Positions 4,673 to 58,422 of a DNA stretch of 64,000 bases are shown here, in pieces (positions within the stretch are counted from its first letter, which is position 1; each line of letters starts with the position of its first letter). The notes under the pieces are model-generated. The model did no database searches. It was given only the letters and a program-made list of their open reading frames with translations, and was not told where the DNA came from. The position numbers were made by a program, and so were the translations under genes. This DNA comes from Acidobacteriota bacterium (GTDB taxonomy: Bacteria; Acidobacteriota; Aminicenantia; Aminicenantales; Saccharicenantaceae). Location of the stretch: assembly GCA_039683095.1 (NCBI GenBank), contig JBDKSB010000012.1, positions 929,846 to 993,845 of the forward strand. The letters are read 5' to 3'.

Positions 4673-5515
4673 TCAGGCCCTCGTCCCGGTCCAATCTAGG
4701 ATGTCGGCAAAGACCTTGTCGCGGCCGAGGTCGATGTAGAGCGCGTGGAACATGTCCGGATACTCGATGAGCGTCTTGTCGGCCGCGGCCAGCCGGGCGA
4801 AGATGCGGCGGGCGGCCCTCTCGTCGACGAGACGATCGACGCCGGGGACGAGGAAGAGCGCCGGCGCCGCGAACGTCCGGGCCAGGCGCCCCGCCCGGGC
4901 CTGGACTGGAAGGAAGCCGCGCATGAGCCCGAGGCTGGCGACCCGCAGCTCGTCCGGGCTTTCGTTCATGACCGCCGCATAATCCGGATCGCGCGTCGCC
5001 ATCTCCGAGGTGAACGGCAGATCGACCATGGATTTCGGATGGAACGGCGTGACCAGGGCGACCTTGACATAAGCGCCCGGGGGGAACTTCATCCCGTTCT
5101 TGAAGGCCGGCGCCATGAGGACCGCGCCGGCGAACAGGCCGGGCCGGCGGCCGGCCAGGTCGTAGGCGATGAGTCCGCCCATGCTCTCGCCGGCGAGGAA
5201 GACCTTTTTCCCCGGAAAGTCCCGCCCGATCGCCTCCCTCAGGGCCAGGAGGTCCCGGTGCCAGACCTCGAAGGAAGCGACGTGGCCGCGCGGCCGCTCG
5301 GGCGTCCGGCCGAAGCCGCGGAGTTCTATGGCGTACGAAGCATAGCCGCGCCCGGCCGCGGCGCGGGCGAAAAAATCCCAGCGGCCCGAGTGGGCGCCCA
5401 GCCCGTGGACAAGGAGAAAGACGGCCTTGGGCGGGACCGGGCCGGCAACTGCGGACGGCGATGGCTCGGCATCCCAGCGGCGGAACAGGAGATCGGTCCC
5501 TTGGAGGCCGCTCAT
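4673..5515 (-). CDS. Alpha/beta hydrolase (lysophospholipase or monoacylglycerol lipase-like)
   Basis: HGLGAHSGRW oxyanion region and GESMGG nucleophile elbow. It sits 1 nt from glpK, so the two are co-transcribed. Confidence 0.85.
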   Translation of the reverse strand: MSGLQGTDLLFRRWDAEPSPSAVAGPVPPKAVFLLVHGLGAHSGRWDFFARAAAGRGYASYAIELRGFGRTPERPRGHVASFEVWHRDLLALREAIGRDFPGKKVFLAGESMGGLIAYDLAGRRPGLFAGAVLMAPAFKNGMKFPPGAYVKVALVTPFHPKSMVDLPFTSEMATRDPDYAAVMNESPDELRVASLGLMRGFLPVQARAGRLARTFAAPALFLVPGVDRLVDERAARRIFARLAAADKTLIEYPDMFHALYIDLGRDKVFADILDWTGTRA

Positions 5516-42634: not shown

Positions 42635-45073
42635 CTATTTGATCTTCCACTCGTGGACGCCGGCCGACCAGTCCGGCTGGAGCCGGACCTCGAGGCGCAG
42701 GGCCCTGGTCCGCACCGGCGCGAACTTGACCGTGTTCCAGGCGTCCTTGGCCGTGCCGTAGGCGCCGGCCGGGCTGACCGGGAGCCAGTCCTCGCCGGCT
42801 TTGTAGAGGATGCGCCAGGAGGCGGGCACGCGGCAGCCGCCGGCGCCCGAGTCGTCGAACCAGTAGACGGACGCTTCGGAGACGCGCACGGGCGCCTCGA
42901 AAGCGTAATCGATCCATTCGGACGTGCCCTTCTTCGGCCACCAGTGCATGTAGCCCGCGGCGTCGTCCGAGCTCTCGGGCTCGAACTGGTCGTTGATCCG
43001 TTTCGGGCTGACCGCGCCCTCCGAGGCCGTGACCGCCGCCTTGGCCGCGAGGCCCGGCTCGCGGGCGACGCGCGCCCTGGACGGGTCGCGGGCCAGCCAG
43101 ACGGCCATCTCGCTCCGGCCCCGGTTGGCCCAGGCGTAATACGGGATGAGGGTCAGGGGCTTCTTCTCGGTCACGATCTTGCCGGCCTTTTCGCTGACGG
43201 CCTCGGCCGCGCCGGTGATGACGACGACGCCGTTGAGGAGTTCCGGCCTCATCTCGGCGCTGAGCGCGGCGCCGTCGGGCAGGACGAGGTTCGCGACCCG
43301 GCCCTCGTTGTCAGGCCCCTCGGCGCAGTAGACGAGCGGGCCGCGCTCGACGGCGACCAGGCCGCGGTCGGCCTCGACGGCCTCGTTGGCCGCGACCCGG
43401 CGGACCGGCATTGGCAGCGACAACTCGACGACGTCGCCGGCCTTCCAGGTCCGGTTGACGAGGGCGTAGCCCTTGTCGAGCGCCAAGGCCGCCGGCGCGC
43501 CGTTGACCTTGAGCGCCGGCTGGCCGGCGGGCGGCTCCGGATAGGAATAGAGGCCGGTCGGCACCGGACGGTTCAGGGCCCAGCCGGGGATGCGCACGGC
43601 CAGGGTGAATGCGGCGTCTTTCGCGGGCCGGACCTCGATGCGGATGTCGCCCTTCCAGGGATACTCGGTCGTCTGGACGAGCTCTAGGTCCGTGCCGCCG
43701 GCCTTCATCCGGCCCGTCCCCTGGGCATAGAGATTGACGTAGACCCGGTCGCTCGCGGCCGCGTAGAAATACCCCGGCACCGAGGTCAGGATGCGGGCCA
43801 CGTTCGGCGGGCAGCAGGCGCAGCTGAACCACGGCACCCGCTCGTGCTGGCCGAACGAGGCCAGGGGGTTGGGGTAGAAGAACCGGTCGCCCGAAAGCGA
43901 GATGCCCGAGAGGACGCCGTTGTAGAGGATGCGCTCCATGACGTCGGCGTACTTGGCGTCGAGCTCCAGGCGCTGCATCCGCGAGTTCCACAGGAACGTG
44001 GCGATGTTGGCGCACGTCTCGGCGTAGGCGCTGGCGTTCGGCAGGCGGTAGGGCGGGCCGTAGCCCTCCCAGCCGCCGGCGGCGCCGATGCCGCCGGTGA
44101 TGTAGAGCTTGGTCCCGGCCATGTCGGCCCAGATCTTGTCCAGGGCGGCGATGTAGGCGGCCTCCCCGGTCAGGGCGGCGACGTCGGCGGCCCCGGCGTA
44201 GAGATAGCCGGCCCGGACGGCGTGGCCGACGGCCTCCGTCTGCTCGACGAAGGGCTTGTGGTCCTGGGCGTACTCGCCGTAGAGGAGCTCGGTCCGGCCC
44301 TCGTTCTCGTAGGGGATCCGGCCTTCGGCCCGGCCGCGGGCGTCTATGAAGAACTTGGCCAGGTCGAGATACTTGCGCGCGCCGGTGACCCTGTAGAGCT
44401 TGACCAGGCCGATCTCGATCTCCTCGTGGCCGGGGGGATTGGCGCGCTTGCCGGGTCCGAACTCGCGGGCAACGAGGTTGGCGCTCTTGACCGCGACATC
44501 GAGCAGGTTCTTCCGCCCGGTGGCCTGGTAGTGAGCGGCCGCGGCCTCGTAAAGATGTCCGAGGTCGTAGAGCTCGTGGCTCATGTAGAGGTAGGACCAG
44601 CGCTCCCGGCCGACCCAGGGCTGGGGCGGCGGGCCGCCGATAGTGCGGGCGGCGTAGAGATAGCCGTCCGGCTCCTGGGCCGCGGCGATCTTGGCGACGA
44701 GGCCGTCGACGTACTTGGCCAGCGCCGGGTCGGCGTGCGTCGCCAGGGCGTAGGAGGCCGCCTCGATGATCTTGTAGACGTCGGAATCGTCGAACGGGAA
44801 GCTGGAGCGGTACTGGCCGCCCTTGGCCCCGGCCAGGGCGGCCGCGGCCAGTTCGAAGTTCCTGACCCGGCCCGTCTCTTCGCACATCTTGAAGATATGG
44901 GGGATGGTCACGGTGCGGTTGATCTCCAGGCGCGGCGCCCAGAAGGCGTCCGTCAGGTGCACGTCGGTGAACGGCACGGGCGCGGCCGGGTAGTCGGCCT
45001 GGGGCGCCTGGTCGCAGGCCGCGGCGAGGGCAAGGATGATCGCCAGGGCCGCTGTCGCTCGGACTCTCGTCAT
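42635..45073 (-). CDS. GH127 beta-L-arabinofuranosidase (HypBA1 / DUF1680 family) lipoprotein
   Basis: Start MTRVRATAALAIILALAAAC (ATG 45073, AGGAGG 7 nt upstream). The ORF-track start at 45436 adds 121 junk codons. Cys-rich Zn site FSCACCPPNVARI and a large (alpha/alpha)6 region. Confidence 0.85.
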   Translation of the reverse strand: MTRVRATAALAIILALAAACDQAPQADYPAAPVPFTDVHLTDAFWAPRLEINRTVTIPHIFKMCEETGRVRNFELAAAALAGAKGGQYRSSFPFDDSDVYKIIEAASYALATHADPALAKYVDGLVAKIAAAQEPDGYLYAARTIGGPPPQPWVGRERWSYLYMSHELYDLGHLYEAAAAHYQATGRKNLLDVAVKSANLVAREFGPGKRANPPGHEEIEIGLVKLYRVTGARKYLDLAKFFIDARGRAEGRIPYENEGRTELLYGEYAQDHKPFVEQTEAVGHAVRAGYLYAGAADVAALTGEAAYIAALDKIWADMAGTKLYITGGIGAAGGWEGYGPPYRLPNASAYAETCANIATFLWNSRMQRLELDAKYADVMERILYNGVLSGISLSGDRFFYPNPLASFGQHERVPWFSCACCPPNVARILTSVPGYFYAAASDRVYVNLYAQGTGRMKAGGTDLELVQTTEYPWKGDIRIEVRPAKDAAFTLAVRIPGWALNRPVPTGLYSYPEPPAGQPALKVNGAPAALALDKGYALVNRTWKAGDVVELSLPMPVRRVAANEAVEADRGLVAVERGPLVYCAEGPDNEGRVANLVLPDGAALSAEMRPELLNGVVVITGAAEAVSEKAGKIVTEKKPLTLIPYYAWANRGRSEMAVWLARDPSRARVAREPGLAAKAAVTASEGAVSPKRINDQFEPESSDDAAGYMHWWPKKGTSEWIDYAFEAPVRVSEASVYWFDDSGAGGCRVPASWRILYKAGEDWLPVSPAGAYGTAKDAWNTVKFAPVRTRALRLEVRLQPDWSAGVHEWKIK

Positions 45074-45085
45074 CTTCGGCCTCCT

Positions 45086-45181
45086 AAAATGGGGGACATG
45101 ATACCCGTTTCCTGTTTTCTCGCCTGTCGAAAAGGCGGGATATGACGCCGATTCCTGATCCTCCCGGAATGATATCATAGC
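45086..45181 (-). repeat. Composite repeat element, copy A (~95 bp): full unit, degenerate unit, partial unit. Lies in the GH127 5' region and includes that gene's SD-proximal sequence.
   Basis: 45086-45119 aaaatgggggacatgatacccgtttcctgttttc. 45130-45155 aaaaggcgggatatgacgccgattcc. 45161-45181 ctcccggaatgatatcatagc. The reverse complement aligns with the composites at 52144-52216 and 55312-55380. Confidence 0.7.
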
Positions 45182-45243
45182 ATTTTCCGGCCGGTTTTCC
45201 CGGCTTTCGGCGTTCAGGCCCGATCCGGGTCGGGGGAAGACCG

Positions 45244-45275
45244 GGGAACGGGCGTCATGTCCCCCATCCTTTCGG
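45244..45275 (+). repeat. Inverted partial copy of the repeat unit (GGGGAACGGGCGTCATGTCCCCCATCC), 45-75 bp upstream of the araB -35
   Basis: Its reverse complement matches ATGGGGGACATGAYRCCCGTTCC of copy A with 2 mismatches. Confidence 0.65.
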
Positions 45276-45319
45276 GCCGGCCCCCAGGGGAATCCTGCGT
45301 GGACGTTCCCGCAGACGGG

Positions 45320-45347
45320 TTGCTCCCGGAGCCGGCCTGAGTATAAT
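45320..45347 (+). promoter_or_regulatory. Sigma70-like promoter TTGCTC-N16-TATAAT for araB
   Basis: TTGCTC at 45320-45325 and TATAAT at 45342-45347, ~40 nt upstream of ATG 45388. Confidence 0.5.
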
Positions 45348-45387
45348 AGAAGCCGGCAGTAGCCGGTCCAAGTTCGAGCGGAGGTCC

Positions 45388-47088
45388 ATGCCCATGAAAG
45401 CCGCGAAGTACGCCCTCGGCCTCGACTTCGGCACAAACTCGGTCCGGGCCCTTGTCGTCAACATCGGCAACGGCGACGAGGTCGGCACGGCGATCTTCGA
45501 CTACCCCGGCGGCTCCGCCGGCATCCTGCTCGATCCGAAAGACGCCAACCTGGCCCGGCAGAACCCGGCCGACTGGATCCTGGGCATCGAGAAGACCGTC
45601 CCGGCCGCCCTGGCCGCGGCGAAAAAGAAGGTCAAGGGCTTCGACCCTGCGGCCGTCGTCGGCGTCGGCGTCGACACGACCGGCTCGACGCCTCTGCCGC
45701 TCGATCGGGCCGGCAAGCCCCTCGCTCTCTATAAGGAATTCCGAAAGAACCTCAACGCCCAGGCCTGGCTGTGGAAGGACCATACCGCCCACGCCGAGGC
45801 GGCCGAGATCACCGCCCTGGCCGCGGCCGAACACCCCGAGTACCTGGCCAAGTGCGGCGGCACCTATTCCTCCGAGTGGTTCTGGAGCAAGATCCTCCAC
45901 TGCCTGCGGACGGATCCCAAGGTGGCCGCGGCCGCCTACTCCTGGGCCGAATGCGCCGACTACATCCCGGCCCTCATGACGGGCTCGACCGATCCTCTCC
46001 GGATGAAGCGCAGCCGTTGCGCCGCCGGCCACAAGGCCATGTTCAACGACGCCTGGGGCGGCCTGCCGGCCAAGGCCTTCCTGGCCAAGCTCGATCCGCG
46101 TCTGGGCGAGCTCCGCGACCGCCTCTACCAAAAGACCTTCACGTCCGACGTCCCGGCCGGCGGCCTGACCAAGGACTGGGCCAGGAAGCTGGGCCTCCGC
46201 CCCGGCATCGCCGTGGCCGTCGGCGCCTTCGACGCCCACCTCGGCGGCATCAGCTCCGGCGTCGAGACCGGCCGCTTCGTCAAGATCATCGGCACCAGCA
46301 CCTGCGACATCTGCGTCTGGCCCGCTTCCAAGAAGCTGCCCGATATCCCGGGCCTGTGCGGCATCGTCGACGGCTCGGTCCTGCCCGGCTACCTCGGGCT
46401 CGAGGCCGGCCAGTCCGCCGTCGGCGACATCTTCAACTGGTTCGTCAACGTCATCGAGCCCGGCGGTCCGAAGAAGGGCTCGCACGCCGTCCTGACCCGG
46501 GGCGCGGCGGCCCTCAAGCCCGGCGAATCGGGCCTCCTGGCCCTCGACTGGCTCAACGGCAACCGGACCGTCCTCGTCGACCAGCGCCTGACGGGCCTCA
46601 TCGTCGGCCTGACCCTGCACACCACGCCGGCCGAGATCTACCGGGCCCTCATCGAGGCCACGGCCTTCGGCGCCCTGACCATAATCCGGCGCTTCGAGGA
46701 GTACGGCGTCCAGATCCGCGACGTCGTCAACTGCGGCGGCATCGCCGAGAAGAACCCGCTGGTCATGCAGATCTACGCCGACGTCACCGGCCTGGAGATG
46801 AAGATCGCCCGCTCGAGCCAGACTTGCGCCCTGGGCGCGGCCATGGCCGGGGCCGTCGCGGCCGGACGCCCGGGCGGCGGCCACGCGACCTTCGCCGAGG
46901 CCCAGGCCGCCATGGGCGGGATCAAGCGCACGGTCTACAAACCCGACGGCGCCCGCCACAAGGTCTACCTCGAGCTCTTCGCCCTCTATCGCGAGCTCCA
47001 CGACGCCTTCGGCACGAAGGCCTGGAGCGGCAGCCTCTATAACGTGATGAAGGACCTGCTGGCCCTCAAGGACCTCCAGAGGAGGTAG
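45388..47088 (+). CDS. araB: Ribulokinase
   Basis: FGGY kinase with AraB-specific length (~565 aa). N-terminus YALGLDFGTNSVRALVV, C-terminus ...GAAMAGAVAAG. GGAGG is upstream; the second ATG at 45394 is the more likely true start. Confidence 0.9.
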   Translation: MPMKAAKYALGLDFGTNSVRALVVNIGNGDEVGTAIFDYPGGSAGILLDPKDANLARQNPADWILGIEKTVPAALAAAKKKVKGFDPAAVVGVGVDTTGSTPLPLDRAGKPLALYKEFRKNLNAQAWLWKDHTAHAEAAEITALAAAEHPEYLAKCGGTYSSEWFWSKILHCLRTDPKVAAAAYSWAECADYIPALMTGSTDPLRMKRSRCAAGHKAMFNDAWGGLPAKAFLAKLDPRLGELRDRLYQKTFTSDVPAGGLTKDWARKLGLRPGIAVAVGAFDAHLGGISSGVETGRFVKIIGTSTCDICVWPASKKLPDIPGLCGIVDGSVLPGYLGLEAGQSAVGDIFNWFVNVIEPGGPKKGSHAVLTRGAAALKPGESGLLALDWLNGNRTVLVDQRLTGLIVGLTLHTTPAEIYRALIEATAFGALTIIRRFEEYGVQIRDVVNCGGIAEKNPLVMQIYADVTGLEMKIARSSQTCALGAAMAGAVAAGRPGGGHATFAEAQAAMGGIKRTVYKPDGARHKVYLELFALYRELHDAFGTKAWSGSLYNVMKDLLALKDLQRR

Positions 47089-47091
47089 CCG

Positions 47092-47790
47092 ATGCTGGCC
47101 GAGCTCAAGGAATCCGTCTGGAAGGCCAATCTGGACCTGGCCAGGTCCGGCCTGGTCATCCTGACCTTCGGCAACGTCAGCGGCATCGACCGGCGCCGGG
47201 GCATCGTGGCCATCAAGCCGAGCGGCGTCCCCTACGACGCCATCAAGGCCGACGACATAGTGCTCGTCGACCTCGAAGGCGGCGTCGTCGAGGGCTGGCT
47301 CAGCCCCTCGTCGGACACGCCGACGCATGTCGAGCTCTACAGGGCCTTCCCGGGGATCGGGGGCATCACCCACGCCCACAGCCCCTACGCGACCATGTTC
47401 GCCCAGGCGAAGCGGGAGATCCCCTGTTATGGGACGACCCACGCCGACCAGTTCCACGGCCCCGTGCCCCTCACCAGGCCGCTCGGCGAGCCCGAGATCG
47501 CCGGGGCCTACGAGCGGAACACGGGCCAGGTCATCGTCGAGCGCTTCGCCGGGCTCGAGGCGCTCGAGTGTCCGGCCGTCCTCGTGGCCGGCCACGGGCC
47601 CTTCACCTGGGGCCGGACCCCGGCCGAGGCCGTCGAGACGGCCATCGTTCTCGAGCAGGTCGCCCACACGGCCTTCGGCTCGGTCATCATCGAGCCCCGG
47701 CTCGACCCCCTGGACGCGTGCCTCCAGGAAAAGCATTTCCGCAGGAAGCACGGGCCCGACGCCTATTACGGACAAAAGAAGGAGGAATGA
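47092..47790 (+). CDS. araD: L-ribulose-5-phosphate 4-epimerase (class II aldolase fold)
   Basis: 232 aa with motifs GNVSGIDR and THAHSPYATMFAQA. It sits 3 nt after araB. Confidence 0.9.
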   Translation: MLAELKESVWKANLDLARSGLVILTFGNVSGIDRRRGIVAIKPSGVPYDAIKADDIVLVDLEGGVVEGWLSPSSDTPTHVELYRAFPGIGGITHAHSPYATMFAQAKREIPCYGTTHADQFHGPVPLTRPLGEPEIAGAYERNTGQVIVERFAGLEALECPAVLVAGHGPFTWGRTPAEAVETAIVLEQVAHTAFGSVIIEPRLDPLDACLQEKHFRRKHGPDAYYGQKKEE

Positions 47791-47792
47791 TC

Positions 47793-49271
47793 ATGACCAA
47801 CATCCCGAAGGTCCGCCTCGGCCTGGTCGCCGTCAGCCGCGACTGCTTCCCCATCGAGCTTTCCCGCAAGCGCTCCCTCCGCGTGGCGGAGGAATGCCGC
47901 AAGCTCGGCGTGTCCGTCACGCGCATCCCGACCGTCGTCGAGAACGAGAAGGACGCCCTCCAGGCGCTCGAGGAGCTGCGGGACAAGAAGATCAACGCCC
48001 TGGTCATCTATCTGGGCAACTTCGGCCCGGAGACGCCGACGACCATCCTGGCCCAGAAGTTCGACGGCCCGGTCATGGTCGTCGCCGCCGCCGAGGAGTC
48101 GGGCAAGGACCTCGTCGACGGGCGCGGCGACGCCTACTGCGGCATGCTCAACAACTCCTACAGCATGGGCCTGCGCCGGCTCCGGCCCTACGTGCCGGAA
48201 TACCCGGTCGGCCTGCCCGAGGAAGCGGCCGGGATGATCGCCGATTTCGTGCCTGTCGCCCGGATCCTGCTCGGCCTGGCCAAGCTCAAGGTCTTCTCTT
48301 TCGGGCCGCGGCCGCAGGATTTCCTGGCCTGCAACGCCCCGATCAAGCCGCTCTACGACCTCGGCGTCGAGATCATGGAGAACAGCGAGCTCGACCTCTA
48401 CGACATCTTCCGCAAGTCCGAGGGCGATCCGAAGGTCAAGGCGGTCGCGGCGGACATAGCCAGGGAGCTGGGTGCCGGGAACGCCTATCCCGGCATCCTG
48501 AACAAGCTGGCCCAGTTCGAAGTCGCGCTGCTCAAGTTCATGGAAGGGAACCTCGGCGCCTCGGAGTTCGGCATCTTCGCCGACAAGTGCTGGCCGGCCT
48601 TCGAGAGCTTCTTCGGCTTCGTCCCCTGCTACGTCAACTCGCGGCTGGCGGCCCGGGGCATCCCGGTCGCCTGCGAGGTCGACATCTACGGCGCGCTGAG
48701 CGAGTACATCGCCACCTGCGCCACGGAGTTGCCGGCCACGATCCTCGACATCAACAACACCGTCCCCTACGACATGATCGCCGGGGCCAGGAAGGCGATC
48801 AAGGGCTACAAGCCCTCCGACCTGTTCATGGGCTTCCACTGCGGCAATACGCCGGCCGGGTGCCTGGTCAACCCGGCCATGGGCTACCAGCTGATCATGC
48901 ACCGGCTCCAGGAGCCGGGCAAGGAGCCCGACATCACCCGGGGGACGGTCGAGGGGCGGATCAAGGCGGGCGGCGTGACCATTTTCCGCCTCCAGTCGAC
49001 CGCCGACACTGTCCTGCGGTCCTACATGGCCGAGGGCGAGGTCCTGGACGTCGATCCGAAGTCGTTCGGCGGGATCGGGGTCATCGCCGTCAAGGAGATG
49101 GGCCGGTTCTACCGCCACGTCCTCGTCGAGAAGCGCTTCCCCCACCACACGGCGGTGGCCTTCGCCCCGGCCGGCAAGACCCTGTGGGCGGCCATGCGCA
49201 TGCTCGGGGTCGAGGACATCGGCTTCAACCGCCCGGCCGGGATGCTCTACCCGACGGAGAATCCGTTCTAA
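47793..49271 (+). CDS. L-fucose-isomerase-family sugar isomerase occupying the araA position (putative L-arabinose isomerase analogue)
   Basis: Start ATG 47793 with AAGGAGG 9 nt upstream; the ORF-track start at 47568 adds an Arg/Gly leader. The N-terminus PKVRLGLVAVSRDCFPIELS is FucI-like and lacks the canonical AraA FWFVTGSQHLYG N-terminus. It immediately follows araD. Confidence 0.65.
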   Translation: MTNIPKVRLGLVAVSRDCFPIELSRKRSLRVAEECRKLGVSVTRIPTVVENEKDALQALEELRDKKINALVIYLGNFGPETPTTILAQKFDGPVMVVAAAEESGKDLVDGRGDAYCGMLNNSYSMGLRRLRPYVPEYPVGLPEEAAGMIADFVPVARILLGLAKLKVFSFGPRPQDFLACNAPIKPLYDLGVEIMENSELDLYDIFRKSEGDPKVKAVAADIARELGAGNAYPGILNKLAQFEVALLKFMEGNLGASEFGIFADKCWPAFESFFGFVPCYVNSRLAARGIPVACEVDIYGALSEYIATCATELPATILDINNTVPYDMIAGARKAIKGYKPSDLFMGFHCGNTPAGCLVNPAMGYQLIMHRLQEPGKEPDITRGTVEGRIKAGGVTIFRLQSTADTVLRSYMAEGEVLDVDPKSFGGIGVIAVKEMGRFYRHVLVEKRFPHHTAVAFAPAGKTLWAAMRMLGVEDIGFNRPAGMLYPTENPF

Positions 49272-49346
49272 AAAATGGGGGACACGATACCTATTTCCTA
49301 TTTTCGCCGGCACCGATAATTAGGAAATAGGTATCGTGTCCCCCTA
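49271..49346. terminator. Bidirectional intrinsic terminator with a perfect 24-bp stem (two inverted repeat units) between convergent araA and the M28 peptidase
   Basis: 49277-49300 GGGGGACACGATACCTATTTCCTA pairs with 49321-49344 TAGGAAATAGGTATCGTGTCCCCC across a 20-nt loop. An A6 tract lies upstream. The T-rich tract TAATTTTCTTAATTTTC lies downstream on the plus strand, and TTTTTT on the minus strand. Confidence 0.7.
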
Positions 49347-49360
49347 ATTTTCTTAATTTT

Positions 49361-50935
49361 CTAGCTGCGGCCGCGCTGCGGCGCCGGCGCGTTGGCGTCG
49401 AAGTATTTCCGCGGCAGCTTCTGGTCGCGCATGGCGGCATTGTAGACGAACCAGGCCATGACCGTGGCCGCCTGCATCAGGTCGGGGCGGGACAGGTGGT
49501 CGTAGACGTCCATGGTCGAGTGGTGCGTCAGAGTGTCGTACTCGAGATCGTCCTGGATGAACTGGAAGCCGGGCAGCCCGACGCCGTCGAACGGCAGGTG
49601 GTCCGTGCCGCCCGTGTTCCGCAGGACCACGGTCCCGGCGCCGAGATCGCGCACGGGCCTGAGCCATTCCTCGAAGATGGGCACGACGGCGCTGTTGCCC
49701 TGGGCGTAGATGCCGCGGATCTTGCCGCTGCCATTGTCGAAATTGAAGTAGGCCGAGAGCTTGTCGTATTCCGGCTTCTTCTCCTTCTTCGCCCGGTCGA
49801 AGAAATGGTTCGCGACATAGCCGCGCGAGCCGACGAAGCCCTGTTCCTCCGCGTCCCAGAAAGCCATGCGGATGGTGCGCCGGGGCTGGACGCCGAGCGC
49901 CTTCAGGATGCGCATGGCCTCGAAGGCGACGGCGCAGCCGGCCCCGTCGTCCGTGGCCCCCGTGCCGCCGTGCCAGGTGTCGAAGTGGCCGCCGAGCATG
50001 ACCAGCTCGGCCTTGAGCTTGGGGTCGGCGCCGGGGATCTCGGCGACGACGTTCGTGCCCGGCAGATCGTCGGCCGTGAACCGGGCCTGGACCTCGACCT
50101 CGAGCGTGACCGGGACGTTCTTCTGGATAATGCGGACGATGCGGTTGTACTGCTCCGTGGCGACGGCGATCGCGGGAACGGGCGTCTCCGCGCCCTTGGT
50201 CCGCGAGCCGCCGGCGGCGACAAAGACCGTGCCGAACTTGCCCCGGCCGGGATCGAGGATGACGCCCACGCCCTCGGCCTTGAGCATCTTCTGGATGGCC
50301 TGCTGGACCTGCGCCCGGGCCATCATGTCCTGCATCTGCGGGGCCTGGGGCCGCCGGGCGTACGGATCGGGTGCCAGCATGAGCTTCTCGAGATCGGGCC
50401 CGGCCAGGCGCGAGGCCATCGGGTCGAACGAGATCGGCAGGTCCTGCTCGCCCTGCAGCAGGACGATGGCGTCCTTGAGCTTGCCCTTGTACTGGTCGAG
50501 GTCGGCCACGGTCTTGGCCTGGATCAGGACGGCCTGCCCCTTGAGGAGGCCGTTCGTCCCGGGCGTCCAGGCCTTGGGATAGCCGACGATGGGCATGTAC
50601 TGAGGCTCGGTCATGGCGGCGTAGAACTTCAGGAGCTCCCAGCTGCGGCCGAACGTGCCGTAGGGCTCCATGGCCGCGTTGGCCAGGCCGATCTCCCTGG
50701 CTTTGCCGACAACCCACTCGCCGGCCTTGACGTACTGGGGCGAGTCGGGCAGCCGCGGCCCGTAGACGTCGCAGAGATAGACCAGGAAATCGCTGATCTT
50801 GGAGTTGTTCAGGCCCTCGGCGCGGATGCGGTCGAGCATCTGCAGGTCGAGCTTCTCCTGGGCGAAGGCCCCGAGCGAGAACAGGACGACCAGGAGAGCG
50901 AGGACCAGCGAACGGAAGGCCAGGTGTTTTTTCAT
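49361..50935 (-). CDS. M28-family peptidase with a PA domain (secreted aminopeptidase)
   Basis: Signal peptide MKKHLAFRSLVLALLVVLFSLGAFAQ. M28 motifs LGGHFDTWHGGTGATDDGAGCAV, WDAEEQGFVGS and GTDHLPF. Confidence 0.85.
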   Translation of the reverse strand: MKKHLAFRSLVLALLVVLFSLGAFAQEKLDLQMLDRIRAEGLNNSKISDFLVYLCDVYGPRLPDSPQYVKAGEWVVGKAREIGLANAAMEPYGTFGRSWELLKFYAAMTEPQYMPIVGYPKAWTPGTNGLLKGQAVLIQAKTVADLDQYKGKLKDAIVLLQGEQDLPISFDPMASRLAGPDLEKLMLAPDPYARRPQAPQMQDMMARAQVQQAIQKMLKAEGVGVILDPGRGKFGTVFVAAGGSRTKGAETPVPAIAVATEQYNRIVRIIQKNVPVTLEVEVQARFTADDLPGTNVVAEIPGADPKLKAELVMLGGHFDTWHGGTGATDDGAGCAVAFEAMRILKALGVQPRRTIRMAFWDAEEQGFVGSRGYVANHFFDRAKKEKKPEYDKLSAYFNFDNGSGKIRGIYAQGNSAVVPIFEEWLRPVRDLGAGTVVLRNTGGTDHLPFDGVGLPGFQFIQDDLEYDTLTHHSTMDVYDHLSRPDLMQAATVMAWFVYNAAMRDQKLPRKYFDANAPAPQRGRS

Positions 50936-51065
50936 GGGACGCTCCTTTGTACCGGTCTCGGGGACTATACGCCCGCGGCCGCGGCCTTGTCAAAACACGG
51001 CCGGGACGGACGGCCGCCCGGGACGCTTCCCGGCGGGCCCCGACCTGCTTTATAATGAAGGGACC

Positions 51066-52103
51066 ATGAAAGCGGCTTTCCTGACAGGCGTCCGGACGAT
51101 CGAGATCCGCGACATCCCGGCGCCCCGGCTCGTCCGCGACGACGACGTCATCGTCCGGAGCCGGGCCGTCGGCGTCTGCGGCAGCGACCTCCACTACTAC
51201 CTCTCCAACAAGGTCGGCGGCGACCAGGTCAAGTACCCCTTCATCCCGGGCCACGAGTGCGCCGGCGTCGTCGAGGAGGTCGGTCGGTCCGTGACCAGGG
51301 TCAGGCCGGGCGACCAGGTCGTGGTCGAGCCGGCCGTCTCGTGCGGTACGTGCGACCAGTGCCGGACCGGACGGCCCCACACCTGCCGCAAGCTCCTCTT
51401 CCTCGGCCACTACGGCGAGCTCACCGGCGGCATGGCCGAGCTCGTCCTGGCCCCGGAACGCAACTGCGTGCCGCTGCCGGCGAAAATGACCGCCGTCCAG
51501 GGCGCGCTGGCCGAGCCCCTGTCGATCGGGCTTTACGCGGCCGGGTTAGCCGGCTCGGTAAGGGGGAAGACGGCGGCGGTGCTCGGGACCGGGCCGATCG
51601 GGCTGTGCGTCATCATGGCCCTGAAGGCGGACGGCGCGGGCGCGGTCTACGCCACGGAGAAGGTCGAGGCCCGGCGGACGGCGGCCGCCGAGAAGGCGGG
51701 AGCCGATTGGACGGGGGATCCGGGCGCCGAGGACGTCGTGGCCGAGACCGCGGCCCGCGAGTCCCTCGGCCTCGACCTCGTCTTCGAGTGCTGCGGCGAG
51801 CAGCCGGCCCTCGACCAGGCGGTCGCCCTGCTCAAGCCCGGCGGGACGCTCGTCGTCGTGGGCATCCCCCTCGAGCCGCGCGTCTCCTTCGACAGCTCCA
51901 GGGTCCGCCGGCGCGAGATCCGGATCCAGAACGTCCGGCGCCAGAACAGGTGCCTGGAGCGGGCCGTGGGCATGATCCACGCGGGCCGGATCCCGGTGGA
52001 TTTCCTGGCCACGCATTCCTTCGGCCTCGGCCAGGCCGGAGAAGCCTACGAAACGGCGGCGGCCCGCCGCGACGGCGTGATCAAGGCCATCGTCAGGCCG
52101 TAG
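51066..52103 (+). CDS. Zn-dependent medium-chain alcohol/polyol dehydrogenase (sorbitol or threonine dehydrogenase-like)
   Basis: Start re-assigned to ATG 51066. Motifs GVCGSDLHYY, GHECAGVVEEVG and GxGxxG LGTGPIGL. Confidence 0.85.
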   Translation: MKAAFLTGVRTIEIRDIPAPRLVRDDDVIVRSRAVGVCGSDLHYYLSNKVGGDQVKYPFIPGHECAGVVEEVGRSVTRVRPGDQVVVEPAVSCGTCDQCRTGRPHTCRKLLFLGHYGELTGGMAELVLAPERNCVPLPAKMTAVQGALAEPLSIGLYAAGLAGSVRGKTAAVLGTGPIGLCVIMALKADGAGAVYATEKVEARRTAAAEKAGADWTGDPGAEDVVAETAARESLGLDLVFECCGEQPALDQAVALLKPGGTLVVVGIPLEPRVSFDSSRVRRREIRIQNVRRQNRCLERAVGMIHAGRIPVDFLATHSFGLGQAGEAYETAAARRDGVIKAIVRP

Positions 52104-52143
52104 CCGGGTCCGGCCTTGTACCTCGGCGTCCTATCCGCACGAC

Positions 52144-52216
52144 AAAAAAGGTAACATGTCCCGGCTTTTTCCCGGGCGGGAAAATGGGGAACAGGTATCA
52201 TGTCCCGCATTTTGTC
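52144..52216 (+). repeat. Composite repeat element, copy B (~73 bp), between convergent ADH and DUF2075 3' ends; terminator-like
   Basis: Reads aaaaaaGGTAACATGTCCCGGCtttttcccgggcGGGAAAATGGGGAACAGGTATCATGTCCCGCATTTTgtc. The second hairpin AUGGGGAACA / UGUCCCGCAU pairs 8 of 10 positions, is flanked by A4 and U4, and has GACAAAA / TTTTGTC termini. Confidence 0.7.
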
Positions 52217-52232
52217 GAAAACCGCCGGCCGA

Positions 52233-54209
52233 TCAGATCTCTCTGAAGCCGATCCCTCTGAGATATTCGAACGTCGGGTCGTAGAAGGACGGCTGGCGCG
52301 TCGGATCGTCCCGGTCCCCCGGCGGCACGACGATGACCATGCCCTGGCGCGCCCGCGTCAGGAGAACGCGGTAGGCGTTCTTCTGGTACTTCTGCCTCTC
52401 GGAATCCCTGATGTTCCGCCAGGCGTCTCCCAGGAACGACTTGTGCGTCCACCCCGTTCGCGAATATCGAAAATCCGCGTCCCAGGTGACGCAGGCCCAA
52501 TCGAGCTCCAGGCCCTGGACATCGAATTCCGTGGCCACGTCCTCCAGGTAGTAGGACGACCGCACATCCTGCTTGCCGTCGAGGAACCAATGGACCGGAT
52601 CCATCGGTGCCTTGACATGGATGGCGTGAGGCCGGAGACGCTCCGCTTGCGAGGAGACCACGATGCCGTATCGCTCGGTCCCCCGCGCCTGGGCCTTGAG
52701 CCACGATTTGGCCTGGCCGAGGTCGCGGGTGATGGCGATCGGATATCTGTCCCGCAGCTCGGCCAGGGTCCGGCGCGCCCCCGCGTCGTCCAGGTCCAGG
52801 ACCTGCTTGACCAGAAGGGACACGTTCTCGGCCCGGAAGGAGCGCATGGATACGGCCAGGTGAAGCGAGGGGACGAAGCTGACGTGCCGTCGGGGCTCCA
52901 GCTGCTCGAGAACCCTCCCGGCGCCGTATTCGCTGTCCGTCAGCTGGGGAGAGATGAAGACGCGCCAGTCGGGAAAAGACCGCGTCAGGGAATCGATCCA
53001 TTCGGAGATCCCGGCCTCGCCCCGGTTGATCTCCTGCCCTCCTCCGACGAGGCAGATAACGACGGCCCAATCCGGGTGCCGATCGAGGCAGGAGATCAGG
53101 AACTCGGGCTCCGAAAATCGGAAGCCCGGCCTTTTCTTCTTGCGCTTCATGAAATCCGCGGTCATGCCGCTGTTCCAGGCCCGTTGGGCTTCGTCGAACA
53201 GGGCCACATGATCGACCGGGGGGCGCTTCTCGTCGACAAGACACTCGTCCCGGAAATGATGGACGTTCTGGATGAAGGCCTTGACCCGGCTCTTGGCTTC
53301 GCCTTTCTTGATCCTTTTGCCATGGGCCTTCGTCCGGACGACCATATCACGGGCCAGGGCCTCCTGGAGGATCTTGACCAGCGGGCCGTTCCCGGACAGG
53401 AAGACGCTGTGGTGCGCGTCGGCCTGATCCATATGCTCCGTCGCGACGTTGAGACCGACCAGGGTCTTGCCCGCCCCGGGCACGCCGGTGACGAAGCAGA
53501 TGGATTTGTGCGCCCGCGCCTTGGCGTCTTGAATGACCTTCGAGATCGCGTTCGTCGTCTGGCTGAGATTGACGGCCCCGGCGTCGCTGCGGGATATTTC
53601 GGCGACCGAGTGGCTTCGGTAAAGCGCCAGGGCCGCTTCCATGATGGTGGGCGTCGGGCTGTATCGGCCGGTCTTCCATGTTCGCCAATCGATCTTTTCT
53701 CCGTCGGCGAAGTCCAGCACGCCCTGGATGACTTCGCCAAGCGCCTCCCCGTCGGTTTTCAGGGGAAGCAGGACGTTGTCGTTCCGGGGAGTCAGGGCGA
53801 TGCCCGGCGGAACGCGCCCGGCGCCGGTCGCGATCAGAACGGGCGCGACGAGATGATCGTGGCTGGTTTCATGGAAATTCTTCAGGTCCAGGGCATAATC
53901 CATAACCTGGTCGAGGGCATAGGACGCGAATTCCCTGGCTCCGACCTTGAATTCCAGGACGAAGATGACCGGCCCGATGACGAGCAGGACGTCAATCCGC
54001 TCCCCCATGCGGGGGATGGAGTACTCGAAGTGGATGCCCCCCGAACGGGACCCCAGCGCCGCGCGGAGGATCCCGATCTCCGCGACCCAGGCGGCGCGTT
54101 GCTCGAGCGTGTCGGGGAAGTCGCTGGCCAGCGCCAGCTTCCCGACGATCTCCTCGGTCGAGGACCGGAGGAAGGCGGCGATCGTATCGGAGTAGTATTC
54201 GCGCTTCAC
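52233..54209 (-). CDS. DUF2075-type protein: N-terminal PD-(D/E)xK nuclease-like domain plus a P-loop (SF1 helicase-like) ATPase; Nhi-like architecture
   Basis: 658 aa. N-terminal [22 protein letters not shown] (D...E.K). Walker [16 protein letters not shown]-terminal helicase-like region ending [16 protein letters not shown]. The start overlaps the upstream gene stop as ATGA. Confidence 0.75.
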
Positions 54210-54652
54210 TTCATCCGCTCGCGCATCTTGGCCTCGTTCGCGGCGGGCCAGTAGCCGCAGTCGAGCTCGAGGAAGACCGTGGTGTAGGGAACGGCCACGG
54301 TCGTCTTGACCATGATGATCTTGAAGGTCCGGCCGGCCTGATCCAGCTTGGCGATGAGGTCCTCGCGGAGGATAGGCTGGGCGCCGCGGCCGTCCAGCAT
54401 CCTGTCGAGCCGGCGCTTCGTCTCGTCCGCGCCGGGGGCCAGGTCCTCCGTGACATACGCCGGCTCCTTATCCAGCCAGATCTTCTGGCGGACGTGCCGG
54501 GCCCCGTCGACGGCCTTGAGCACCTTGTCGAGGACGGCAAAGTGGTCATCGCCGGTGACGATGGTTTCGATGCCCGGGCTGATCTGGAGCGGGAAGGCCG
54601 AGTCGGCGACGAGGAGCATGACGATCCCGCTAATGGCCAGGGCGTTGCGCAC
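54206..54652 (-). CDS. Hypothetical protein (148 aa) co-transcribed with the DUF2075 gene
   Basis: Reasonable composition and an N-terminal hydrophobic segment [17 protein letters not shown]. It is translationally coupled to DUF2075 by an ATGA overlap. The alternative frame 54211-54678 is low complexity and was rejected. Confidence 0.45.
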
Positions 54653-54674
54653 GGGTCCTTCTCTTCCTTTCGTC

Positions 54675-55103
54675 TCATCCGGCCAGGAGCCGGTAGGCCG
54701 CCTTGATCGGGGTGCCGCCCTTGAGCATGGCCCAGACGGGGCAGAATCGCTCTTCCGACAGGGCCAGGGCCTTCTCTACCGAGGCGCCGTCGAGCTTCCC
54801 GCCCCGGAACTCGAACTCGAGCTCGATCGACGCGAGGACCTTCGGGTGGATCTCTTTCTTGGCCCCGCGGGCGCGGACGGTCAGGTCCTTGACCTCCTGT
54901 CCCATCCGCTTGAGGAGGCCGACGACGACCTGGCCGCTGCAGCCGGCCAGGCTGGCGAGCAGGAGCTCGAGCGGCGAGAAGCCGTCGATGAGCTGGTCGT
55001 CGGCCGCGAAGTCGAGGGCCACCGTCCGGCCGGCCCGGCCGGAGACCCCGTCGAACCTCATCCCGCCCCTGAAGACGACATCGGACCGGATCTCTTCGGC
55101 CAT
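54675..55103 (-). CDS. OsmC/Ohr-family peroxiredoxin-like protein
   Basis: 142 aa with paired Cys motifs LAGCSGQ and FCPVWAM typical of OsmC. Confidence 0.85.
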   Translation of the reverse strand: MAEEIRSDVVFRGGMRFDGVSGRAGRTVALDFAADDQLIDGFSPLELLLASLAGCSGQVVVGLLKRMGQEVKDLTVRARGAKKEIHPKVLASIELEFEFRGGKLDGASVEKALALSEERFCPVWAMLKGGTPIKAAYRLLAG

Positions 55104-55311
55104 GGGCTCGCTCCTGTTGTCGCCGTCCGCGGGACGGCCGTTCGCCCGGCAGTATCCAACGAGTGGAGGCGCTCTGTCAACCCGGGCCGGCGGGGAGAAT
55201 AGTGGGGCGCCCGGGATCGGGATAAGCGCCGGGGAAGCCGGACCGGCGGAACGGGCCGGCGGCCGCGGTCAGGCCTTGGGCGGGCCGGGAGCGGACGACG
55301 GGCGAATAATT

Positions 55312-55393
55312 AAAAAAGTATCATTCCCGGCTTGTTATCAGGCGGGAAAATGGGAAACGGGTATCGTGTCCCCCATTTTAATCCCCCATTTTA
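55312..55393 (+). repeat. Composite repeat element, copy C (~80 bp), between the hybrid-kinase 3' end and the OsmC operon 5' end
   Basis: Reads aaaaaaGTATCATTCCCGGCttgttatcaggcGGGAAAATGGGAAACGGGTATCGTGTCCCCCATTTTAatCCCCCATTTTAgg. It aligns position by position with copy B and with the reverse complement of copy A. Confidence 0.7.
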
Positions 55394-56473
55394 GGCGGCG
55401 GGGGCCTCGCCGCCCGCGACCGGCAGGGCGACGAAGAATTCGACCCACTTGCCGGGCTGGCCCTCGACCCAGATGCGGCCCTTGTGCTTGTCGACGACCG
55501 TCTTGCAGATGTAAAGGCCAAGGCCCGAGCCTTTGACGCCCTCGGTGCCCTTCTGCTTCAGGCGCTCGAACCGCTTGAAGAGCCGGCCCTTGTCCTCCTC
55601 GGGGATGCCGACGCCTTCGTTGCGGACCGAGAAGACGATCTCGCCGCCCTTCCGCGCCAGGCGGAGCCGGACCGGCGTCCCTTCGGCGCCGTACTTGACG
55701 GCGTTGTTGACCAGGTTGTTGACCAGGATCTTCAGCAGGGCCGGGTCGCCGTCCACGACGGGATCGCCCTCGAACTCGGTCACGATCGGCATCTTCTTGA
55801 GGTTGTCCCGGAAGCCGGGCGTCTTCAGGGCCTCGGCGACGACCGCCGAGGCGAACGGGACGCGCTCCTTGAACGTCGCCAGCCCCTCGAGGTCCATCTT
55901 GGACAGGTCGATGTAGGTGCGGATGATGTCCTCGAGGTAGAGGCAGTTGCGGAGGATCGTCCCGACCATCTTCTCCTGTTCGGGCTCGAGCTTGCCGAAG
56001 TAGCCCCGGTAGAGGGTCTCGGCCGTCGTCTGGAGGGCCGCCAGCGGGCTCTTGAGCTCGTGGGAGACGATGGCCATCAGGTCGAGCATCTTGGCCCCGG
56101 CCGCGCTCTTCCGGGCCTCGAGGGCGTTGGCCACGACGTTGCGCATCTCCTCCGGCGTGAACGGCTTGGGGACGTAGTCGAACGCGCCGGCCTTGAGGGC
56201 CTCGCGGGCGGTGTCCACGCTGGAGTATCCGGTGAAGATGATGACCGTCGTGCCGGGCCGGTCCCGGCGCAGGGCCTTGAGGACCTCCATGCCGCCGAGA
56301 CCGGGCATCTTCAGGTCCGTGACGACGATGTCGTAGTCCTTGGCCATGGCCATGGCCAGCCCCTGATCCCCGGACGAAGCGGTGTCGATCTCGAAGCCGC
56401 TCCCGGCGAAGATCCGCCGCGAGCTCTTGAGGACGATGTCCTCGTCGTCTATGAACAGCAGTTTGGGTGCCAT
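55391..56473 (-). CDS. Hybrid response-regulator receiver / histidine kinase (REC-HisKA-HATPase)
   Basis: Start at MAPKLLFIDDEDIV (ATG 56473); the ORF-track N-extension is junk. REC domain with DIVVTDLKMPG, H-box VSHELKSPL and ATP-binding GSGLGLYICK. Confidence 0.85.
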   Translation of the reverse strand: MAPKLLFIDDEDIVLKSSRRIFAGSGFEIDTASSGDQGLAMAMAKDYDIVVTDLKMPGLGGMEVLKALRRDRPGTTVIIFTGYSSVDTAREALKAGAFDYVPKPFTPEEMRNVVANALEARKSAAGAKMLDLMAIVSHELKSPLAALQTTAETLYRGYFGKLEPEQEKMVGTILRNCLYLEDIIRTYIDLSKMDLEGLATFKERVPFASAVVAEALKTPGFRDNLKKMPIVTEFEGDPVVDGDPALLKILVNNLVNNAVKYGAEGTPVRLRLARKGGEIVFSVRNEGVGIPEEDKGRLFKRFERLKQKGTEGVKGSGLGLYICKTVVDKHKGRIWVEGQPGKWVEFFVALPVAGGEAPAA

Positions 56474-56499
56474 GGTGCCTTCTTCCCCCCGCCTCGGCG

Positions 56500-58422
56500 T
56501 TAGCGCGTCGGCAGCTTGATGATGAATTCCGTGCCCGCGCCGACCTTGCTGCGGACGTCGATCTGCCCGCCGTGCCGCTGAACGGCCCCGTAGACCATGG
56601 GCAGCCCCAGCCCCGTCCCCTGGCCCCGGTCCTTGGTCGTGAAGAACGGCTCGAAGATCTTGTTCAGGTTCTCCTCGCTGATGCCGGCGCCGGTGTCGGC
56701 CACCCGGATGACGGCCATGCCGGTCTCCGGCTCGAGCGACGTCGCGATGGTCAGCTGCCCGCCGTGGGGCATGGCGTCCGCGGCGTTGACGGCCAGGTTG
56801 TTGATGACGGCCCGGATCTCGGCGGGGTCGACGCTGACCCGGGGCAGGCTCGGGTCCAGCTCCTTGACGATCCGGATGTTCTGGAAGGTGACGTGCTTCT
56901 CCAGGATGCGCAGGCTGTCCACGATGAGGGCGTTGAGGTCGGACAGCGTCCGCTCGGACTTGCTGTCCCGGGCGAAATCGAGGATGCCCCGGACGATGCC
57001 CCGGCAGCGCAGGGTCTCGTCCCGGATGACCTTGAGGTCCTCCTCGTACGGCGTGCCCTTCATGTCCTCGAGGAGCAGGCTGCTGTAGGTCAGGACGCCG
57101 GTCAGGGGATTGTTGATCTCGTGGGCGATGCCCGAGGCCAGGCGTCCGATCGAGGCCAGCTTTTCGGACTTGAGGATGGTCCGGTCGGCCAGCTCGGTCA
57201 GCTGCCGGTCCCTCTCTTCGATGGCGTCGACCATGCCGTTGAAGGCCTGGGCCAGGGCCCGGGCATCCTCGTCGTCGTGCGGATCTGTCTCGATGCGGTG
57301 GTAGAAGCCCAGGGCCATCTCGGTCGAGGCGTCGATGATGCGCTTGACCGGCTTGGTGTAGAGGTTGATCAGGTAGCCGGCCAGGGCCAGGGCCAGGAGC
57401 GTCGAGACGAGCAGGACCAGGAGGTAGGCCATGGTCGTGTTCCGGACGACGACGTCGAACTTCTTCTTGAGGACGCCGACGTAGAGCATGCCCTGGGCCT
57501 TCTGGTCGAAGTCGAAGAGGGGCGTGTAGCCGGAGATGTACCAGTCGTTGACGACGAAGGCCTTGCCGACCCAGGCCGTCCTGTCCTCGAAGACCTTGCG
57601 GTAGACCTCCTCCGAGGCCTGCGTGCCGATGGCCCGCTTGCCGGCCGCGTCGACGACGTTGGTGGCCACCCGGATGTCGCCGAGGAAGATCGTGGTCGTC
57701 CCGGCGTCCTTGCCGTCGATCCGCTCGTCCTTGAACAGGAGGCGCTTGAAGCGGTCGACGAAGGCGGCGTTGTTGTTGAGCAGGACTGCCCCGTAGAGGA
57801 TGCCGGTCATGCGCGAGCCGTCCCGGATGGGCGCGGCGATCTTGATGACCAGGGCCCGGTTCTCGACGGTCGACGGCCGCGGCCGGCCGTGCGACGTCGG
57901 CACGACGGGGATGATGGTCCGGCGGGCCAGGTCCTCGCCCTCCCGGGCGATGGTCTCGTACTCGAGGACGCCCGTCCCGGCCACCAGGGTCCCGGTCCGG
58001 CGGACCTCCTGGATGGTCCGGTAGCCGCTCATGCTGTCGCCGAAGGATTCGAAGGCGTTGGCCCGGACGAGGATGGTCCCGTCCGCGTCGACGACGTTGA
58101 CGATGTCGAAGCCGAACTCCCGCTTGATCTGGACCAGCTTCTCGAACAGGAAGGCCCGGTCCCCGGCGGCCGAGGCCCGGATGAGCTCGGGCGTCTTGGC
58201 CATGGACTGGATGATCCGCGACCGGTTGTCGATCTCCTCGCGGTAGAGCTCGCTGGCCGAGGTCAGGCTGGCCCGCACGGTCGCGTAGGCGTCGCGGACG
58301 ACGTTGGTGTTGATGACATTCAGGCCGATGATGATCGACAGGACGCCGCTCAAGAGGACGATGCCGAGCAGGCTGAAGACCAGCTTGAACCGGATGTTCG
58401 AGCGGGCCAGCTGTTTGATCAT
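56500..58422 (-). CDS. Sensor histidine kinase with a periplasmic double-Cache-like domain, HAMP, HisKA and HATPase
   Basis: Two TM helices ([21 protein letters not shown] and [21 protein letters not shown]) flank a ~280-aa periplasmic domain. H-box IAHEINNPL and G-box GTGLGLPMV. The start overlaps the response-regulator stop as ATGA. Confidence 0.85.

Follow-up and report, generated by a model that had tools for sequence, protein, structure and literature searches.

What are the AT-richer islands that lie between the genes around the arabinose locus of a GC-rich Acidobacteriota genome, and do they take part in the control of that locus? The stretch analyzed here, called the window, comprises 64,000 nt of contig JBDKSB010000012.1 at ~69% G+C, and all positions below are window coordinates. 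Between 45.08 and 55.39 kb it carries a ~33-nt unit (consensus AAAATGGGGGACATGATACCTATTTCCCATTT) in five full and about five partial copies, distributed over four loci (A to D), each of which is an AT-richer island in a gap between called genes. These units are very probably dispersed, nonautonomous copies of the terminal inverted repeats of a TIRtron, the element associated with Group 1 REP-associated tyrosine transposases (RAYTs), also known as TIRYTs; they are similar to repetitive extragenic palindromic (REP) sequences and, where paired, to REPINs. An earlier sequence-only reading had proposed a structured element resembling REPs or miniature inverted-repeat transposable elements (MITEs), confined within the window to intergenic DNA near the arabinose locus, and both parts of that description hold: all four loci fall in gaps between called genes, and the units are inverted repeats tied to a Y1 transposase of the RAYT/TIRYT type.

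To define the units, we searched the window with nhmmer using a profile built from 176 distinct copies. Five strong units were recovered (E 6e-12 to 9e-9), and, apart from these and weak fragments at the same four loci, no match below E=0.1 was found in the whole window; the exact 22-mer GGGGGACAYGATACCYRTTYCC occurs four times. Because five profile units and four exact GGGGGACAYGATACCYRTTYCC cores are confined to four loci, the repeat observation is confirmed, and the earlier count of at least ten copies at four loci is fair, since five full copies are accompanied by about five partial ones. An additional GGGGGACAGG trace that had been pointed out in the GH51 spacer (41919) is at chance level, as 22 of 100 shuffles contain at least one match.

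Site A begins with a full unit on the plus strand (45085–45119; nhmmer E=1.5e-11, exact 22-mer), which abuts the GGAGG ribosome-binding site of GH127. A half unit in direct orientation (GGGATATGACGCC / GGGATATGACGCCGATTCC; 45137–45157, plus strand) completes the composite and aligns colinearly with composites C and D as well as with the sequence 5' of a RAYT gene. Locus A continues for ~85 nt past this composite, up to a degenerate inverted partner, GGGGAACGGGCGTCATGTCCCCCAT (45244–45275, minus strand; two mismatches to the 15-mer core), which closes a long imperfect hairpin with 45085–45119. Site B (49271–49349, both strands) is a REPIN-like inverted pair of units at 49271–49305 (plus) and 49316–49349 (minus), located where the araA and M28 peptidase genes converge. 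Site C (52144–52216, minus strand) lies between the convergent genes for a Zn-dependent alcohol dehydrogenase (ADH) and an SLFN-g3/DUF2075 helicase and contains a full unit (52180–52212; nhmmer E=8.5e-9), a half unit (52150–52162), and a T-run. Site D (55312–55394, minus strand) contains a full unit (55346–55380; nhmmer E=7e-12), a half unit (~55315–55330), and a 12-nt terminal duplication that is a partial unit copy (55382–55394, minus strand). A(+), C(−), and D(−) align as one colinear composite, in which a full unit is followed by 16–17 nt, a direct half unit (GGGAnATGWYRCC), and a T-run. The earlier reading had also described a composite architecture for three loci; the 30-bp internal duplication that it had assigned to copy A is absent from the alignment.

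At many copies, as at site D, one to three tandem partial copies of 9–12 nt stand before the outer end of the unit (e.g., in L027, L042, L084, L096, L032, L101, and L102, where L-numbers denote numbered comparison stretches from other genomes or metagenomes). These copies read AAAATGGGGGA in Aminicenantes and GGGGAAATA or GGGGACAT in Acidobacteriaceae, and they yield runs of G4-5 tracts. Slippage and repeated end processing are both possible origins of such tandem copies, including the one at 55382–55394.

To examine how far the family extends, we scanned 185,579 species-representative genomes for the 22-mer and obtained at least 120 stretches from at least 37 species-level assemblies; by our own estimate, about one chance match to the 22-mer is expected in the 596-Gb genome collection. 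The profile-hit, pair, single, and gap counts that follow come from the matches listed among these stretches. The carriers listed are mostly high-GC metagenome-assembled genomes (MAGs) of Candidatus Aminicenantes, together with Acidobacteriaceae/Terracidiphilus and a few Caulobacter MAGs; some Aminicenantes-type MAGs carry the labels "Eubacteriales" or "uncultured bacterium," and their G+C content and synteny match Aminicenantes. The consensus over 177 copies is aAAATGGGGGACATGATACCTATTTCCCATTT. Of at least 250 profile hits, 171 fall entirely between genes and 59 reach no further than the edge of a called gene, although intergenic DNA, based on crude gene calls, accounts for only 15% of the bases. 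Several MAGs contribute at least 9–18 separate stretches each. All 69 inverted pairs have their GGGGGACA ends pointing outward (none has the opposite order) with 0–182 bp between the arms, and the 112 singles have no strand bias, many of them with a degenerate inverted partner close by. Units occupy convergent (42 units in 68 gaps), divergent (54 in 123), and tandem gaps (83 in 230). Fixed ends and polarity in such varied gap contexts thus indicate a repeat family with defined ends, and neither a terminator consensus nor a locus-specific operator. The pair gaps also have an apparent 10-bp periodicity; many of these pairs are orthologous copies and are hence not independent.

The polarity of the pairs is matched around a transposase gene. 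Clustering of 728 crude neighbor gene calls returned only housekeeping or glycoside-hydrolase neighbors and no transposase. In Acidobacteriaceae, several units are followed ~20 nt downstream by frames starting with MARLARIV(I/V)PGLPHHVTQRGNRR, which are N-termini of Y1 transposases (MARLARIV.PGLPHHVTQRG), and tblastn with that peptide identified MPRFARVVVPGCPHHLIQRGNRR adjoining units in two Aminicenantes MAGs. On contig JBGSUG010000302.1 the gene is complete (219 aa), with a full and a half unit upstream and an inverted unit downstream that overlaps the stop codon. The encoded protein matches PF01797 (Y1_Tnp) with 30 bits and five orthologues match with 30–48 bits (cut-off 23), and the catalytic motifs are present (HUH as HFH; YVEKNP). 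Its best NCBIfam model is "REP-associated tyrosine transposase" (NF047646, 48.8 bits, under the equivalog cut-off of 80), its sole Protein Data Bank match is E. coli TnpA-REP (4ER8, E=0.025), and it aligns from end to end with GSU2396 at 50% identity (E=1e-75), a TIRYT enzyme that appears in the alignment of Di Nocera et al. (PMC3733652, Additional file 5). With E. coli RayT it shares ~23% identity, limited to the catalytic core. A search of the C-terminal extension against Pfam for a helix-turn-helix domain gave no match even at E=10.

Homologues of this transposase number 1762 at E<=1e-20, and most clusters are found on one to six contigs. The bracketed Y1 HUH gene (~220 aa) is present in six Aminicenantes lineages (JBGSUG010000302.1, L203/204, L205/206, L207, L208/209, and L210). 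The five orthologues share one neighborhood, with GH42, a TRAM/tRNA U5-methyltransferase, and a GFO_IDH_MocA oxidoreductase, and around each of the five lies an inverted pair whose polarity is that of the dispersed pairs. The repeat at the orthologues takes the form ATGATACC, ACAATACC, or GGTGGCGTGATATCC, and the flanking variants differ by lineage, with GGGGGACATGATACC in L208/209, CGGGGACACAATACC in L203/204, L207, and L210, and GGTGGCGTGATATCC in L205/206. The core GGGGACAC fits the motif GGGG[AT][CG]A[CG] published for this group exactly, which supports membership in TIRYT/Group 1 RAYTs; GGGGACAT fits at seven of eight positions, and the L205/206 variant GGTGGCGT departs from it. The genome that contains the window presumably encodes its own cognate enzyme.

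Some Acidobacteriaceae stretches hold a further arrangement, in which a unit heads tandem, noncoding repeats of 250–290 bp (L033, 5600–6450 and 7600–8000; L038, 1700–2300). Within these tandem repeats lie degenerate copies of the 5' end of a Y1 transposase gene, and L033 carries in addition a second, different Y1_Tnp at 6473–6872 (55.6 bits).

These features closely resemble a system described previously. Di Nocera et al. (2013) reported RAYT-like genes flanked by terminal inverted repeats rather than GTAG-REPs, named them TIRtrons, and noted that many of their repeats share GGGGWSAS and form "moderately abundant" families of singles, dimers, and groups (PMC3733652). Quentin et al. [quoted passage not shown] (2017) found very abundant flanking 16-mers in Groups 2 and 3 only, with an average of ~12 in Group 1 (PMC5581495). 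In addition to the identity to GSU2396 and the flanking inverted repeats with a fitting core, the present enzymes share with TIRYTs an MxRxARVVxPGxPHHxxQRGN N-terminus, a Y---NP motif, and a ~95-aa C-terminal extension (TGRPxGxxxF...GRP), and the dispersed copies likewise occur as singles, dimers, and groups. In contrast to the published cases, the repeats here are dense (five full units in 10 kb of the window, and at least 12–18 separate 8-kb stretches per MAG) and form tight hairpin doublets; neither the repeat sequence nor the Aminicenantes hosts appear in the literature that we searched, in which a full-text search for the core sequence and a search for RAYTs linked to Aminicenantes each found no paper.

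The system also shares features with the REP/REPIN-RAYT systems of Enterobacteria and Pseudomonas (Nunvar 2010; Bertels & Rainey 2011, PMC3116915; structure 4ER8), namely a single-copy, syntenic Y1 transposase gene with its own repeat on either side, singlets and hairpin-forming inverted doublets in extragenic DNA (pair B has a 24-bp stem), repeat variants that differ by transposase lineage, and orthologous copies that persist across species. It differs from the E. coli-type TnpA-REP in the low, core-only identity and the subthreshold NF047646 score given above, and from canonical REPs in that the unit itself is not a clear palindrome.

Comparison with related genomes reveals insertion, absence, and decay at orthologous sites, the behavior that the sequence-only reading had associated with mobility. 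The window is 82–86% identical in nucleotide sequence to the corresponding loci of seven other species. Upstream of GH127, an orthologous unit or pair is present at site A in L009, L012, L003, and L119. Site B is filled, with a homologous spacer, in the window, L149, L165, and L201 and is also occupied in L103, L040, and L115; in L125, L144, and L187 it is empty, with the araA and M28 stop codons abutting. L141 has a decayed copy, and the closest relative, L123, has an ACAATA-variant copy. A compensatory origin of the changes in both arms of the L123 copy was considered and rejected in favor of the ACAATA variant itself, which matches a different transposase lineage. Site D is a ~100-bp insertion relative to L123, L188, L142, and L165, located inside the ancestral 3' end of a histidine-kinase gene; the present stop codon (TAA) is supplied by the TAAAATGGGGG of the element, and the kinase tail is ~7 codons shorter than in L123 (window 55391–55440 vs. 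L123 9290–9345). Site C is absent downstream of ADH in L123, L124, L135, and L147; a clean empty-site comparison through L115 and L040 was attempted and abandoned because of other insertions there. A protein-guided metagenome scan recovered 80 ADH-syntenic araBDA-M28-ADH-OsmC loci (606 kb), in which there are seven unit hits in five loci. Finally, the same strain is also represented by a Logan assembly (SRR15035646; L121), which matches the window at 100% identity and whose contig stops within hairpin B, at window position 49276, the type of break expected at a multicopy repeat; an exact-protein look-up of OsmC returned the same strain only.

Other changes accompany these sites. The araA/M28 gap appears to have been colonized by more than one repeat family, as a different hairpin repeat with arms GGAGAAGTCCCTCC/GAGGGACTTCTC is found there in L152 (~4825–4960), L166 (~4870–5190), and L171 (~5280–5320). 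In L103 (4190–7073), two near-identical hairpin-B copies flank a 2.7-kb insert with an erythromycin-esterase-like gene and a Kelch-repeat gene, which suggests that the repeats act as sites at which accessory genes recombine or are inserted. Some syntenic relatives carry the SLFN-g3/DUF2075 helicase gene and others lack it, and L115 has a small insert with two open reading frames (ORFs) at the junction with the 3' end of ADH. Element C occupies precisely this ADH 3' junction, which is a hotspot of variation.

From these data, and by analogy with the biochemistry of E. coli TnpA-REP and IS200/IS605, we propose that a single-copy Y1 HUH transposase encoded elsewhere in the genome, and bracketed by its own inverted pair, would recognize the conserved core of the unit (GGGGACAY-GATACC). 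The enzyme would nick and rejoin single-stranded DNA at the unit, thereby seeding copies into intergenic DNA that tolerates AT-rich sequence; these copies may then persist, decay to singles or half units, or vanish, so that the singles and half units would be decayed or partial products. Effects on neighboring genes, such as the terminator form of B, the clipped kinase tail at D, and the position of A in the GH127 leader or promoter region, would be by-products under this proposal.

Several observations weigh against this assignment. The 64-kb window contains no Y1 transposase gene, and the relatedness of the transposases agrees only in part with the repeat variant that flanks them. The unit also lacks the 5' GT[AG]G foot of the canonical REPs of Groups 2 and 3 (no GTAG or GTGG occurs in the consensus), and it is at best a weak palindrome, in which stem complementarity within units is 5.47 of 7 compared with 5.17 in permuted pairings. 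Structure covariation across copies, which the sequence-only reading had named as a check, amounts to a small excess in this permutation test, and we do not claim within-unit covariation for this reason, although the pairs AAATGGG/CCCATTT, AAATCGG/CCGATTT, and AATTCGGG/CCCGAATT had appeared promising by eye. Finally, a possible 5–6-bp direct repeat, (G)AG(G)CGG, flanks insertion D, which is unexpected for the single-strand mechanism of a Y1 enzyme; in GC-rich DNA this repeat may be due to chance.

The same direct repeat would, on the other hand, be expected of a classical MITE, that is, a deletion derivative of a DDE insertion sequence that moves by cut-and-paste and leaves target-site duplications. 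Terminal inverted repeats of fixed polarity around a variable interior and presence or absence at orthologous sites are equally compatible with such an origin, and Correia/NEMIS, ERIC, and RUP elements are comparably short, AT-richer, and intergenic with inverted ends, and when transcribed can act as terminators, promoters, or RNA-processing sites. However, these MITEs are tied to DDE transposases and target duplications (e.g., TA), whereas the present units are tied to a Y1 HUH enzyme and have no consistent duplication: the flanking AAAAT...ATTTT is inverted, is part of the repeat, and is not a direct duplication. Moreover, no DDE transposase recurs among the genes that flank units or are enclosed by them, and the gene bracketed in six lineages is a Y1 HUH gene in conserved synteny and not a multicopy insertion sequence, so that we regard a MITE origin as improbable. 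An origin as host-evolved intrinsic terminators, in which A-tract, G5 stem, and T-tract would end transcription in both directions and the likeness of the copies would reflect common constraints, seems to us improbable to the same degree. This explanation draws on pair B, which lies between convergent genes and is predicted to fold on either strand into a 24-bp perfect stem (−48/−50 kcal/mol, z = −9.2 in both cases) with U-rich tails; its shape is that of an intrinsic terminator acting in both directions, or of an mRNA-stabilizing hairpin, between araA and M28, and convergent gaps are somewhat over-represented among the hosts of units. The bidirectional-terminator shape that had been assigned to each full unit nevertheless holds for locus B only: the folds of composites C and D are no more stable than those of shuffled sequences (z = 0.16, 0.06, 0.49, and −1.06), and none of the four loci was picked up by a simple scan for terminators. 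At site A, the minus-strand fold (45060–45300) reaches −105 kcal/mol with z = −2.6, and a scan of 44000–56500 with Rfam covariance models, ranked by E-value, gave only subthreshold chance matches and nothing relevant. Conservation of a 22–33-nt sequence across phylum-level lineages would also be atypical for terminators, and the units bracket a transposase gene. A generic terminator placed at gene ends, the outcome against which the sequence-only reading had set its proposal, does not describe a distribution with more units in divergent and tandem than in convergent gaps. A reading of the unit as a promoter, with TATCAT as −10 and GGGACA as −35 elements, was rejected because spacing and flanks are inconsistent, and a promoter scan found none within the units.

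The alternative that first suggests itself from the window, and that the sequence-only reading had put forward, is that the units are attenuators or operator sites for a regulator of the arabinose/arabinan neighborhood. All four loci lie within 10 kb around araBDA and GH127 with none in the other 54 kb, and unit A is kept beside the GH127 ribosome-binding site in four related species. Elsewhere, however, the units lie in dozens of genomes beside unrelated genes (peptidases, a HAD phosphatase, SDR and BNR proteins, and others), and most syntenic ara loci are without units; sites C and D, which flank ADH, helicase, and kinase genes and not ara genes, are absent from the closest relative. Control of araB is more plausibly attributed to a separate conserved palindrome and promoter. 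An 18-bp near-palindrome, TGCGTGGACGTTCCCGCA (45296–45313), is followed by TTGCTC-17-TATAAT upstream of araB (to 45348), and both are kept in L123 and L141 despite different upstream neighbors; judging from the sequence, they are probably the real ara operator and promoter, a LacI/GntR-type site unrelated to the repeats. We therefore consider a regulatory role as the origin of the units very unlikely, and still less likely that they are binding sites for a host chromosomal protein (a nucleoid protein, gyrase, or an uptake-sequence receptor) kept by selection. The latter idea would account for a core conserved across distant lineages and for arms far better conserved than the spacer in the orthologous pairs of L015, L023, and L026, but it leaves unexplained why the units are strictly associated with the Y1 gene and fixed in polarity around it, why one was inserted into the tail of a coding sequence, and why lineage-specific bursts contrast with near absence in close relatives. 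Binding by a host protein may, as for the REPs of E. coli, coexist with the origin as TIRtron repeats that we favor.

The genes around the four loci were assigned by Pfam and composition-based gene calls. A GH51-like arabinofuranosidase (39448–41871, minus strand) and GH127 (42635–45073, minus strand) precede the araB-like FGGY kinase (45394–47088), the araD aldolase (47092–47790), and the araA-like isomerase (47793–49271), all three on the plus strand; the GH127 start codon is at 45073, and element A, which lies within 12 nt of it, is therefore part of the GH127 leader or promoter region. Beyond site B lie the M28 peptidase (49361–50935, minus strand) and Zn-ADH (51066–52103, plus strand), and beyond site C the SLFN-g3/DUF2075 helicase (52233–54209), a 148-aa ORF (54206–54652), OsmC (54675–55103), and the histidine kinase, whose 3' end is at 55391, all on the minus strand. 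Locus D had been interpreted as a 5' region of the OsmC-DUF2075 operon; it instead occupies the 3' terminus of the histidine-kinase gene, where it lies between the stop codon of the kinase and the conserved promoter of OsmC (TTGACA-18-GATACT, 55180–55151), more than 130 bp upstream of the latter.

For annotation of this genome, the four loci should be labeled as copies of a mobile repeat and not as ara regulatory sites; with this label, hairpin B explains the assembly break in the same strain, and element D explains the shortened kinase tail. In relatives, the repeats mark places of gene gain and loss, as for the helicase gene and the 2.7-kb insert in L103. The main interest of the finding is that Group 1/TIRYT, usually regarded as repeat-poor, is associated here with a dense REPIN-like population and lineage-matched variants in uncultured Acidobacteriota. 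The family is a well-sampled TIRYT/Group 1 case outside Proteobacteria, and its variants (ATGATACC, ACAATACC, and GGTGGCGTGATATCC), together with the empty, filled, and decayed sites, are useful for studying how repeats spread and persist in Acidobacteriota and how they affect neighboring genes. We would put at about even the chance that a Group 1 RAYT of high-GC Aminicenantes sustains a REPIN-like population that is both large and long-lived, with the gene kept in one syntenic slot and the repeat shifting with the enzyme. If so, the vertically inherited REPIN-RAYT partnership known from Gammaproteobacteria (Groups 2 and 3) would also cover the RAYT group that is largest and most widespread, as well as an uncultured, phylum-level lineage, and the variants of enzyme and repeat would form a natural series for studies of how these proteins read DNA.

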